Positions 44,702-51,980 of a stretch of 64,000 bases of DNA are shown piece by piece (position 1 is the first letter of the stretch; every line of letters starts with the position of its first letter). The stretch is from Schmidtea polychroa (taxonomy: Eukaryota). Where the stretch lies: contig CM097885.1 of NCBI GenBank assembly GCA_044892525.1, positions 91,016,001 to 91,080,000 on the forward strand, written 5' to 3'. Both the position numbers and the translations under genes were made by a program. The notes beneath the pieces are model-generated. The model saw nothing but the letters and a program-made list of their open reading frames with translations. It did no database searches and was not told where the DNA came from.

Positions 44702-44718
44702 TATAATTATAATAATAA
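44653..44718. repeat. (AAT)n microsatellite at the outer boundary of inverted-repeat arm A
   Basis: Direct reading. Confidence 0.95.
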
Positions 44719-47700
44719 TTAAACAGTTACAAACAATCGGTTACTAAATATTTTTAACTAGGTGCTAACAAATACTTTCAACATGATACCACGTACTAAC
44801 TAAATCTCAAACAACCAGATACTTACAACTAACTACTAAATATTCTTTATTGTATTTTATGAAATGCTTTTTAAATTAATTTTTTATCTGTCTTCAAAAA
44901 TATGTTTAATTACAATCAGTAGAAAAACCTTTTCAAATTTAACAAAAATGTTGATTTTCATCAAAAAATAATTGACAACTCATCACCACGTGAAATTCAA
45001 AATAATTTAAATTACAATGAAAGACTAATGAATTCTAATTTACAAAACATTCTTCTATTAATTAATAACTACTGACTTATTATTGCAAAGTAAAAATCGC
45101 ATTCAATAAATACTTATTGTTGATCACTTTTATTATATATACTCTGAGTTTATCCGACAGGATGTTTTGACCCCCCTAAGGGTACTGGTCGTAAGGGTAC
45201 TGGTCGTAAGGGTATTAGTCGTAAAGGTACTAGTCGTAAGGGTATTGGTAACACTCAACCACCACCTACTCATTAATTAACTACCATGTACTAACAACCA
45301 GTTACCTGATACCAAGTACTAACAACCAACATCAACCTGTTACTAAGCATTATCAACCTACAACTATATAACAACAATCAGTAAACAACACTCTACCAAC
45401 TATTAAATACAAGATACCAACAACTAGATACCAAGTACCAACAATCAACTAACCACACATAAAAATAATAGCAATTAAATACAAAATATTCTTCATCACA
45501 TACACTATCTTCTTATCAAAATCTAAAAAGTCAACCAACTACTTACAACCAACAACTATGTACTAACAAATTGATCTTTAAAAGAAAATACTCTTCACTT
45601 GAAAAATTGGATGAAAAATTAATTGAACTCAAGGCATCAATAACTAGGTAAAAATTGATTAAATATCATTAAAAAATACTCATAATTTCATCATTAAATA
45701 TCATTATAAAAATTTAAATAATAGACAAGAAAGAATTCTAGTCATTAATCATCCAGTAAATAAAAAAATACTGATCATTCAAGTTGAATCAACTAAGATA
45801 ATAAATTAATAAGATAAGATCTAGTAGATAATTGATTTAGATTGAATAAATTAATTGAAATAAAATTAATTTTAATTATTTTTTTTTAAAAGTAATACAT
45901 GTACTCAAATTGATTGACTGATTGCTCAATATATTCAAAAAATCAGTATAAATTCATTACAATTATCAATGTCATCAATCTACAATAAAAATAATTATCA
46001 TTAAATTCCAAAAGAGACTGATAGCTAATGATAAAATCTAACAAACCAGTAAATTCATTTAAATGACAATAATTGGTATATCCGAGTGAATTCTCCAATA
46101 AAATCATCTATAAAGAATCATTTTCCCCTAAATATATCAATATTTAAAGATTGGTATTTTAATGATAAGTACTTGTTAAAGATCATATATTCACCTCAAA
46201 CTAACAAGATTCCTTAAAATCCCTTAAATGACTATATTTCTACCCTTAATCCATATTATTACAAATATTTCACTAAAATCATCTAAAAAGCATTAAATTT
46301 CCCTGAAATATCTCTATCTTTAAAGATTAGTATTTTATCGATAAATATCCTTAAAAGGTTATATATTTACCTCAGACTAATAAGATTGCTTAAAATCCCC
46401 TTTAAATGACTATAATTCTAACTTTAATTCATATTATCACGAATATTTCCCTATAAAACATGTAAAATAATTTGGTCATTAACCCTAAATAATTTATAAA
46501 ATCTAATGATAAAACCGGTTATAATAAAAATTTTTTTTAATCACTGTAAATTTTTGTAAATCACTGTACTCGAAATTTAAAATAAATATAACTGACTAGG
46601 TCTCATTGGAAGATTAAATTTATTCATTCAATTAAATAAATTTCTTCAAATGGTCAACTTTTGTCGTTGTCCGTCTAAATAAAGATAAAAATAATTTAAA
46701 GTTGATATCAATCCCAATTATTTGTAAAGTTTTCATTGTCAAAACCAAGTAAATCGATCATTAACACTACGTAATAAAACATAAGTCTAAAACATAAATC
46801 TAAATTAATTTACTGTGCATTAATCACAACCTAATAAAACGATATAATTTCACATTATTATTGATTCATAACTAATGTATTGCAATTTCCCTTAAAACAT
46901 TGATATTTTACCAACATCACCATTAAAAAATCATATATTCCCATCTTAACCGATCTCTCAGCAAATATTTCTACCCTTTTAAACACCTATCTGATTATAT
47001 CCCTTAATTCTACCCACTTGAATCCTCCTTTAATTCACTCAATCCTCTTAAAATCCTTAGAGAATTCTTCAAAAAATATGAATTTTCATAGACACCAAAT
47101 ATTCTTCCATTGAAATAATTTAGAAGCTAAATAATAAGAGCCCACTAACCAATCAAAATTCACTAAAATTTCTACAAATATTTACCATCAAATACCTAAC
47201 TGGAGATGATATATATTGATTGATCTTAATTCTTCATCGATTCAGCCAATCATTTTCAAGCAATAACAACAAACTAAATTTCAGTATATCCAACAATCAT
47301 TTTCAAGTAAATTTAAAGTTAACTGGTTTCTTAGCTTATGTTTTTTAAAGTTCATCAATGAGTAAATATTCTTAGAAAATTTTTGAAAAATTATTTAGTC
47401 AAATATATTACAAAGTTATCATCAAAAATCACTTAATTATTAACCTAATTGTCAATGAAATTAATTTTTATTTAAAAACTATTCAATAAAATACCACTAA
47501 TTATCAAGAAATTAATTAAATTTATCAATTAAATTTATCACCATTAAAACTTTTATTCAGTCAACATGAAATTCTTAGAAAATTATTCAATATCCTCATC
47601 AAAATTTATCCTATCACTTGATTATTGTACAAACTCTAATTATTAACCTCTTTGAAAATAATTTTTATTTAAAATTAAAAAACAAGTCAATAAAAATACA

Positions 47701-50700: not shown

Positions 50701-51980
50701 ATTATTTTTATTGTAGATTGATGACATTGATAATTGTAATGAATTTATACTGATTTTTTGAATATATTGAGCAATCAGTCAATCAATTTGAGTACATGTA
50801 TTACTTTTAAAAAAAAATAATTAAAATTAATTTTATTTCAATTAATTTATTCAATCTAAATCAATTATCTACTAGATCTTATCTTATTAATTTATTATCT
50901 TAGTTGATTCAACTTGAATGATCAGTATTTTTTTATTTACTGGATGATTAATGACTAGAATTCTTTCTTGTCTATTATTTAAATTTTTATAATGATATTT
51001 AATGATGAAATTATTAGTATTTTTTAATGATATTTAATCAATTTTTACCTAGTTATTGATGCCTTGAGTTCAATTAATTTTTCATCCAATTTTTCAAGTG
51101 AAGAGTATTTTCTTTTAAAGATCAATTTGTTAGTACATAGTTGTTGGTTGTAAGTAGTTGGTTGACTTTTTAGATTTTGATAAGAAGATAGTGTATGTGA
51201 TGAAGAATATTTTGTATTTAATTGCTATTATTTTTATGTGTGGTTAGTTGATTGTTGGTACTTGGTATCTAGTTGTTGGTATCTTGTATTTAATAGTTGG
51301 TAGAGTGTTGTTTACTGATTGTTGTTATATAGTTGTAGGTTGATAATGCTTAGTAACAGGTTGATGTTGGTTGTTAGTACTTGGTATCAGGTAACTGGTT
51401 GTTAGTACATGGTAGTTAATTAATGAGTAGGTGGTGGTTGAGTGTTACCAATACCCTTACGACTAGTACCTTTACGACTAATACCCTTACGACCAGTACC
51501 CTTACGACCAGTACCCTTAGGGGGGTCAAAACATCCTGTCGGATAAACTCAGAGTATATATAATAAAAGTGATCAACAATAAGTATTTATTGAATGCGAT
51601 TTTTACTTTGCAATAATAAGTCAGTAGTTATTAATTAATAGAAGAATGTTTTGTAAATTAGAATTCATTAGTCTTTCATTGTAATTTAAATTATTTTGAA
51701 TTTCACGTGGTGATGAGTTGTCAATTATTTTTTGATGAAAATCAACATTTTTGTTAAATTTGAAAAGGTTTTTCTACTGATTGTAATTAAACATATTTTT
51801 GAAGACAGATAAAAAATTAATTTAAAAAGCATTTCATAAAATACAATAAAGAATATTTAGTAGTTAGTTGTAAGTATCTGGTTGTTTGAGATTTAGTTAG
51901 TACGTGGTATCATGTTGAAAGTATTTGTTAGCACCTAGTTAAAAATATTTAGTAACCGATTGTTTGTAACTGTTTAATTA
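44716..51980. repeat. Giant inverted repeat: arm A 44716-~47870, arm A' ~48770-51980, spacer ~0.9 kb
   Basis: Reverse complement matches at every block checked; one substitution seen (arm A ~45681 vs arm A' ~51015); a 19-bp repeat array differs in copy number at the inner ends. Confidence 0.93.

Follow-up and report, generated by a model that had tools for sequence, protein, structure and literature searches.

A near-perfect 3.1-kb internal inverted repeat in a putative gene-less Polinton-type element of Schmidtea polychroa and its probable origin by fold-back synthesis

The stretch of DNA analysed here, called the window, comprises 64,000 nucleotides of the Schmidtea polychroa assembly GCA_044892525.1 (contig CM097885.1, positions 91,016,001 to 91,080,000, forward strand). 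It contains an 11,229-bp element (40846–52074) that houses a long inverted copy of part of its own interior, directly before one of its two terminal inverted repeats (TIRs). How did this element come to carry two internal arms that are far more alike than its TIRs? The results suggest that the internal inverted duplication is probably real and the product of intramolecular fold-back synthesis in a gene-less element of the Polinton/Maverick type. Coordinates of the inverted repeat and the element are window positions, and the results refer to this one assembled window.

The inverted repeat and the element that carries it

The strongest match in the self-BLAST was inverted (44705–47862 against 51991–48834, 99.65% identity). 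The core of the two arms, A (44716–47834) and A' (51980–48862), lay on an exact diagonal of 3,119 bp, free of indels and with a single substitution (45681/51015). The longest exact inverted match was 2,153 bp, compared with 14–22 bp in 20 of 20 base shuffles, which excludes chance. At the inner edge (47835–47870 against 48804–48769), 34 of 36 bases paired, and with this edge the full arms run from 44716 to 47870 and from 48769 to 51980. The preliminary description of this locus had proposed a near-perfect inverted repeat of ~3.2 kb with these limits, a spacer of ~0.9 kb, at least one substitution between the arms, and an A' that ends ~6 nt from the right TIR. The comparison bore this out: the spacer is 898 bp, the bases before the TIR are 51981–51986, and the inner edge adds 2 differences in 36 bases and a 57-bp indel to the single difference in the core. 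The start of arm A at an (AAT)n tract (44651–44719) and the inner ends in a 19-bp minisatellite of unequal copy number (5.8 direct, 20.4 inverted) were likewise found as described.

The element starts with AGTAGG and ends with CCTACT, giving AG...CT ends. Self-BLAST and direct comparison showed a TIR pair of ~88 bp with 93% identity. CATGAA stands on each side of the element as an exact 6-bp target-site duplication (TSD); among lengths 2–11 the flanks matched at 6 only, and a match by composition has a chance of 3 × 10⁻⁴. The flanks are the integrase and RNase H sides of a single decayed pol of Gypsy type. When each flank was aligned on its own to another Gypsy copy in the window, the two extrapolated to 32953–32954 with the TSD counted. 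The 6-bp TSD and the two halves of one pol indicate that the flanks belong together and that the element entered the Gypsy pol as a single unit. No second long terminal repeat (LTR) of the target retrotransposon was found in the window, and dating of the insertion by an LTR pair failed. The features of the target and the element are as follows.

39663–40839, minus strand: target Gypsy-type retrotransposon, integrase side, decayed
40840–40845: left copy of the TSD (CATGAA)
40846–40933, plus strand: left TIR, starting AGTAGG, with an 8-bp GC stem-loop
40934–44715, plus strand: segment X, ~3.8 kb, single-copy, with tandem arrays of 102, 60, 30, 13 and 14/28 bp and then a diverged second 30-bp/13-bp module (44353–44650)
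44651–44719, plus strand: (AAT)n run where the 13-bp and 14-bp parts of module 2 meet; arm A begins in its final bases
44716–47870, plus strand: arm A (core 44716–47834), in its native context, non-coding, with 15-bp and 176-bp tandem repeats
47753–47870, plus strand: direct 19-bp array, 6 units; the final 36 bp represent older homology
47871–48768: spacer, 898 bp
48559–48943, minus strand: inverted 19-bp array, 20 units; the outer 9 show the same succession of units as the direct array, plus one extra triplet
48769–51980, minus strand: arm A' (core 48862–51980), mirror of A
48805–48861, minus strand: extra 57-bp block, units 2–4, identical to its neighbour 48862–48918 and to 47778–47834
51981–51986: 6 bases between A' and the right TIR
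51987–52074, minus strand: right TIR, differing from the left TIR by 1 substitution and 3 homopolymer-length changes
52075–52080: right copy of the TSD
52081–52799, minus strand: target Gypsy-type retrotransposon, reverse transcriptase/RNase H side, decayed, 5'-truncated

The element appears to be non-autonomous, gene-less and of the Polinton/Maverick type, to which it was assigned by its ends only. None of 12 stop-read-through frames over ~40846–48560 scored above the Pfam cut-off (one match had E = 0.062), and none of 6 frames over arm A and the spacer (44716–48560) scored above the PHROGs cut-off. As A' is the mirror of A, its coding content was read from the scan of arm A. Traces of pPolB, integrase, ATPase, protease or capsid were not detected in the profile-scanned frames of the element, and the longest open reading frame (ORF) within arm A was 69 amino acids (aa). 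Two longer ORFs of 131 and 198 aa are translations of the 102-bp array and were rejected as genes. Rfam gave no match over 39000–54000, and no relatives of the element were matched in prokaryotic genomes, plasmids or phages.

The TIR interiors (40867–40896 and 52022–52053) each contain an 8-bp GC stem around a C-rich loop, with G runs on the opposite strand. This stem-loop is a candidate protein-binding or origin feature. Its folding is marginal: in one sense, 6 of 200 shuffles folded equally well for each TIR, and in the opposite sense 58 of 200 did so for the right TIR.

Ages of the arms and origin of the duplication

The divergence within the element is uneven. The inner edge had 2 differences in 36 bases and the core 1 in 3,119 (Fisher p = 4 × 10⁻⁴). 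TIR and inner edge pooled gave 3 substitutions in 123 bp (2.4%), against 0.03% in the core (p = 2 × 10⁻⁴). Homopolymer runs of at least 5 bases differed in length in 4 of 4 cases in the TIRs (one via the substitution) and in 0 of 40 in the arms. Since the TIRs and the inner edge are far more diverged than the core, the last copying or re-copying of the core was recent. Within the inner 36 bp, each 19-bp array carries one private variant, which argues that this homology is older than the core pair. These comparisons indicate that the core arms, as a pair, are much younger than the TIRs or the innermost 36 bp. The right TIR was thus not formed along with the present A', and the arrays already stood as an inverted pair when the core was copied for the last time.

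The same figures bear on a one-step snap-back. Here the whole left 7 kb, including the TIR, would have been mirrored to ~14.9 kb in total, and X would then have been lost from the right arm without re-copying. This history predicts TIRs and an inner edge as alike as the core, whereas both the substitution rates and the homopolymer runs differ sharply between them. A total of ~14.9 kb does lie inside the range of intact vertebrate Mavericks (12.7–24.6 kb, PMC8097293), and ten bases of the outer junction recur twice in the 30-bp array of X, although the chance of this is ~0.07. We regard a one-step snap-back as very improbable. A source for the 6-base filler at this junction was not found, as no 12-mer match occurred elsewhere in the element.

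Which arm is the original one? The 30-, 13- and 14-bp arrays of X form a first module, and a diverged second module runs into arm A. The modules align at 71% (42511–42819 against 44353–44645) and 84% (43163–43242 against 44763–44842). This alignment spans the start of arm A, and the (AAT)n run is expanded at the equivalent boundary. In a polarity test against module 1, the DNA upstream of A scored 195 (shuffle maximum 77; 0 of 200 shuffles reached 195), whereas the right end scored 21, a value reached by 2 of 200 shuffles. The DNA upstream of A thus aligns to module 1 and the right end does not, which indicates that arm A lies in its native context and that the join of A' to the TIR is the new one.

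Part of the spacer (48364–48471) is a 75% direct paralogue of 45135–45229, so the spacer is derived from the element. This bears on a fold-back or amplification chimera at the level of single reads that entered the contig. Fold-back artefacts make up ~0.6% of Oxford Nanopore genomic reads, and one example had ~2 kb between its segments, so a spacer alone does not exclude an artefact (PMC12870357). However, the artefact is defined in that source by a turn of at most 200 bp near mid-read, while the spacer here is 898 bp of the element's own DNA. A chimera would also have to return, through a second exact junction, to a right TIR that is distinct, followed by the TSD and the corresponding half of the Gypsy element. 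Of the explanations considered, it has the lowest probability. In a separate observation based on ~80 unique bases, the GC skew switched sign within the spacer, at ~48400–48560, ahead of A'. This switch may mark an older inversion centre.

The inner edge lies in the two 19-bp arrays. The extra block of 57 bp has the spacing of 19-mer units 1 and 4, which agree at 18 of 19 bases, and this fits slippage between them. Two further explanations involve the same site. The first is an assembly mosaic, in which X, A and the spacer of one allele or copy were joined to the right part of another that carries an inverted A by its TIR, with the switch in the 19-bp arrays. The join does lie in a minisatellite and is 57 bp out of register, and the single substitution is the expectation for two alleles or young copies. 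Segment X, being 3.8 kb of tandem arrays, also anchors weakly to the left flank. A mosaic would nevertheless still require a genuine inverted-A variant in the genome. The intact TSD and the collinear flanks oppose it, Ns were absent in the element and up to 3 kb from it, and the host exons aligned without visible frameshifts apart from breaks of short-intron size. We consider the mosaic fairly unlikely.

The second is an origin from two molecules, in which the structure is real and arose by unequal exchange or gene conversion with a copy or allele carrying an inverted A. Galileo has many chimeric and converted copies (PMC3573991), and an out-of-register crossover in the arrays would also yield the extra triplet. 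Both a prior inversion and an exchange are needed, however, and no donor was found in the window: AAT runs were the only places where the non-duplicated part of the element (40846–48861) matched other parts of the window, and the TIR motif occurred twice in the 64 kb, both times as the ends of this element. This origin seems to us somewhat less likely again than the mosaic.

Fold-back synthesis within one molecule, which we judge the probable origin, would proceed as follows. A strand with at least ~1 kb of single-stranded DNA would arise from a break, an excision gap, or strand-displacement replication by a polymerase supplied in trans. It would fold back at the pairing of the older 19-bp arrays, one direct and one inverted, and would copy 3.1 kb of its own arm. 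The copying would slip by three 19-mer units, and the new strand would rejoin the template at the right TIR. The new arm may have overwritten an older mirror arm of ~2–3% divergence, a relic of an earlier long-TIR state, or it may have replaced unrelated internal DNA. The former is slightly favoured because the units follow one order in both arrays and the longer of these lies on the A' side.

Fold-back duplications in humans have spacers of 766–70,466 bp and inverted homology at the inner join (PMC3907307). A normal eukaryotic replication fork exposes only 100–200 single-stranded bases (PMC7999016). The 0.9-kb loop exceeds this length, which points to a resected break, an excision gap, or strand displacement by a helper Polinton. 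A tentative sub-case of fold-back synthesis is that the protein-primed polymerase of a Polinton switched template on the displaced strand of an episomal copy that was later integrated. During strand displacement, the entire element would become single-stranded. The Polinton-like ends and the long single strand that the loop requires speak for this polymerase route. Against it, none of the 12 frames held traces of a polymerase or an integrase, and the TIRs are imperfect. Panhandle replication, as in adenovirus, tends to mend TIR differences, and we count this against the route as well. End resection at a break yields equally long loops (PMC3907307).

The preliminary description had read the locus as a template-switch or fold-back product of strand-displacement replication from a terminal origin. 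The fold-back part of this reading is supported by the inner junction on older inverted homology, the native position of A and the slippage length of 57 bp. Terminal-origin strand displacement is neither established nor refuted: no polymerase is encoded in the element, the TIRs have not been homogenised, and repair of a break leads to the same anatomy (PMC3907307).

Several points weigh against fold-back synthesis and the two ages. The outer switch shows no visible microhomology. The queries of the polarity test were unequal in length (298 and 94 bp), and the A' side lengthens the alignment of the 14-bp array by 8 bases (142 vs 134), which slightly blurs the polarity. The difference between TIR and core had p = 0.05 when substitutions alone were counted. 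The arms hold a single C/G run of at least 5 bases and are thus a weak homopolymer control for the C runs of the TIRs. Polishing with multi-mapping reads could erase true differences between the arms or create homopolymer differences in the TIRs, and fast mutation of minisatellite units could inflate the divergence of the inner edge. Against the second Gypsy copy, the two flanks of the element fall 4 bases apart. Finally, we infer every mechanistic step from one assembled sequence.

Hairpin formation and the surroundings of the element

The arms had been suggested to form a giant hairpin or cruciform and to yield long double-stranded RNA (dsRNA). Cruciform extrusion starts at the centre of an inverted repeat. 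In eukaryotic cells a 52-bp spacer was enough to do away with frequent stalling of forks, and in wild-type yeast 6-kb repeats were stable when the spacer was 280 bp (PMC7999016). With an 898-bp spacer a cruciform is unlikely, and this reading was rejected; single-stranded DNA or RNA could feasibly form a hairpin. When the inner 1.55 kb was folded as a single strand, without a shuffle control, arm-to-arm registers took 297 of 552 pairs (RNA) and 298 of 581 pairs (DNA). The structure is expected to be inert as a duplex, to form a hairpin when single-stranded, and to give rise to long dsRNA only when transcription runs across both arms. We found no evidence for a selected function of the inverted repeat.

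A possible source of such transcription is the gene to the right of the element:

53847–57209, minus strand: host gene with four exons, pointing at the element; its stop codon and the right TIR are 1,772 bp apart

The interval from this stop codon to the right TIR holds six AATAAA motifs, and A', the spacer and the TIR hold 18 more. In read-through from the host gene, arm pairing would begin ~6.0 kb past the stop codon. The three exon ORFs scanned in this gene had no Pfam match, and the gene has one unnamed relative at 90% identity.

Of the 21-mers of arm A, 14 of 3,089 were found in X. Any small interfering RNA from the arms would be non-coding and narrow in target. Polintons are present in Schmidtea and targeted by PIWI-interacting RNAs (piRNAs) (PMC8532177), and planarian Polintons are reported as piRNA targets (10.64898/2026.01.28.702291). 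Small-RNA coverage alone would therefore be no proof of hairpin processing. A far-reaching reading is a family of gene-less snap-back Polintons that are replicated by a helper polymerase, kept identical in their arms through repeated fold-back at the 19-bp arrays, and re-integrated, much as in the copy-back defective genomes of viruses to which we liken them. The present copy would then act in trans as a 'Polinton killer' via hairpin RNA made by read-through of the host gene next to it. We consider this quite improbable.

The window has a GC content of 28.7%. A multi-exon LRWD1-like host gene lies at 1537–21486 on the minus strand, with transposons in its introns. Its exon at 1748–2185 matched 29 proteins at 53–70% identity; all 24 named ones are flatworm LRWD1-like proteins, and 5 are unnamed. 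Taken with the GC content, these matches point to a planarian as the likely host. The window lacked a match to the first ~300 residues of the homologues. In a test for a placement of the element inside an intron of this gene, no further exon was found right of 21.5 kb, though the N-terminus may be too diverged to be recognised. A 159-aa ORF in an intron of this gene (4462–4941, plus strand) had weak Pfam matches only and no usable Atlas match.

Three related, decayed Gypsy-type retrotransposons share 63–69% DNA identity (10872–12563, plus strand; 31875–35349, minus strand; and the target at 39663–52799, minus strand). Two long ORFs on the minus strand (13056–15386 and 25031–26310), which we take to be DDE-transposase-like, matched no Pfam family above the cut-off. 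A Tc1/mariner-type transposase ORF lies at 37045–37947. At 58874–60503 there is a 1.6-kb element, presumably hAT-like, with 192-bp TIRs (4 mismatches) and a CAG start; its flanking 8 bases do not match. Ten degenerate TAACCC units at 36078–36137 form an interstitial telomere-like tract, and a diverged inverted pair of ~220 bp (77%) at 63094–63974 resembles a miniature inverted-repeat transposable element.

Comparison with known systems

Intact vertebrate Mavericks have a 6-bp TSD, TIRs of 46–1,447 bp, (AGT)2//(ACT)2 ends and a size of 12.7–24.6 kb (PMC8097293). Across Polintons/Mavericks, the TSD is 5–8 bp, and another survey gives TIRs of 100–1,500 bp (PMC8097293, 10.1101/2023.08.22.554363). 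The present element has the 6-bp TSD, and its TIRs of ~88 bp lie within the first TIR range and just under the second. Its size of 11,229 bp is near the lower limit. Its ends, AGTAGG//CCTACT, agree with (AGT)2 in 5 of 6 bases; (AGT)2//(ACT)2 and (AG)3//(CT)3 are motifs described for vertebrates. Unlike an autonomous Polinton/Maverick, it lacks the gene set of pPolB, retroviral-like integrase, ATPase, protease and capsids, and its interior consists of tandem arrays and a 3.1-kb internal mirror. Butterfly Polintons have TIRs of ~2 kb that carry genes (10.1101/2025.02.07.637071). Ginger2 was rejected as a relative because its ends are TGTNR (PMC2836005). Further background is given in PMC6431247 and PMC5718144.

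In Galileo of Drosophila mojavensis, internal sequence is duplicated in inverted orientation directly before TIR2, and the same is noted for inverted repeats of Polintons (PMC3573991). The copies of Galileo with extended or recombinant TIRs (2RT) resemble the present element, whose inverted internal copy ends 6 bp from the right TIR. Galileo differs in belonging to the P superfamily with a 7-bp TSD, and its recruited piece usually adjoins TIR1 and measured 121 and 441 bp in two cases, compared with 3.1 kb here (PMC3573991). Its TIR1-F1-F1-TIR2 layout is also absent, since 3.8 kb of X separates the left TIR from arm A.

Foldback elements (Tetris, FB) are similarly non-coding, modular and rich in tandem repeats and occur in many rearranged forms, and their long inverted arms flank a middle part (PMC4079207). 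They differ in their 8–10-bp Mutator-like TSD, whereas here lengths 7–11 fail and 6 matches. Their long arms are also the TIRs (PMC4079207), whereas the left long arm here is internal and X has no mirror. Human fold-back inverted duplications with a disomic spacer share the single-copy spacer of ~1 kb and the pre-existing inverted homology at the inner junction (PMC3907307). They are, however, of chromosome scale and form via a dicentric, and terminal deletion, translocation or ring formation heals them, whereas the present duplication lies inside an 11-kb element and returns to its TIR (PMC3907307).

Mu killer and Ac killer of maize are also kilobase inverted duplications of transposon DNA (PMC3440606, 10.1101/2020.01.07.897926), and as at Mu killer, a flanking host gene here points toward the duplication (PMC3440606). 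Their arms carry fragments of the transposase gene or of Ac, and dsRNA or silencing is reported for them (PMC3440606, 10.1101/2020.01.07.897926), whereas the present arms are non-coding and read-through would have to extend ~6.0 kb beyond the host stop codon. If a hairpin transcript exists, the silencing route of the maize killer loci would extend to an animal with piRNA-targeted Polintons.

If real, the structure would document cleanly, in a natural genome, how a Polinton-type element acquires and renews long inverted arms, with two ages of homology in one element and the priming site still visible. Polinton replication is mostly inferred from sequence. If these junctions recurred at several sites of insertion, that would be a rare case of genomic evidence that an extrachromosomal intermediate with strand displacement switches templates. 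In the likelier case, in which a dead element was rearranged once and in place, the locus would represent ordinary transposon decay. We found no published account of such a Polinton structure in the literature outside Repbase, subscription journals and supplements. Overall, the structure acts like an extended-TIR copy of Galileo or a fold-back duplication, yet it is a member of neither family. Particular to this copy are the size of its arms, the 3.8 kb by which the left TIR and arm A are set apart, and its two discernible ages of homology.

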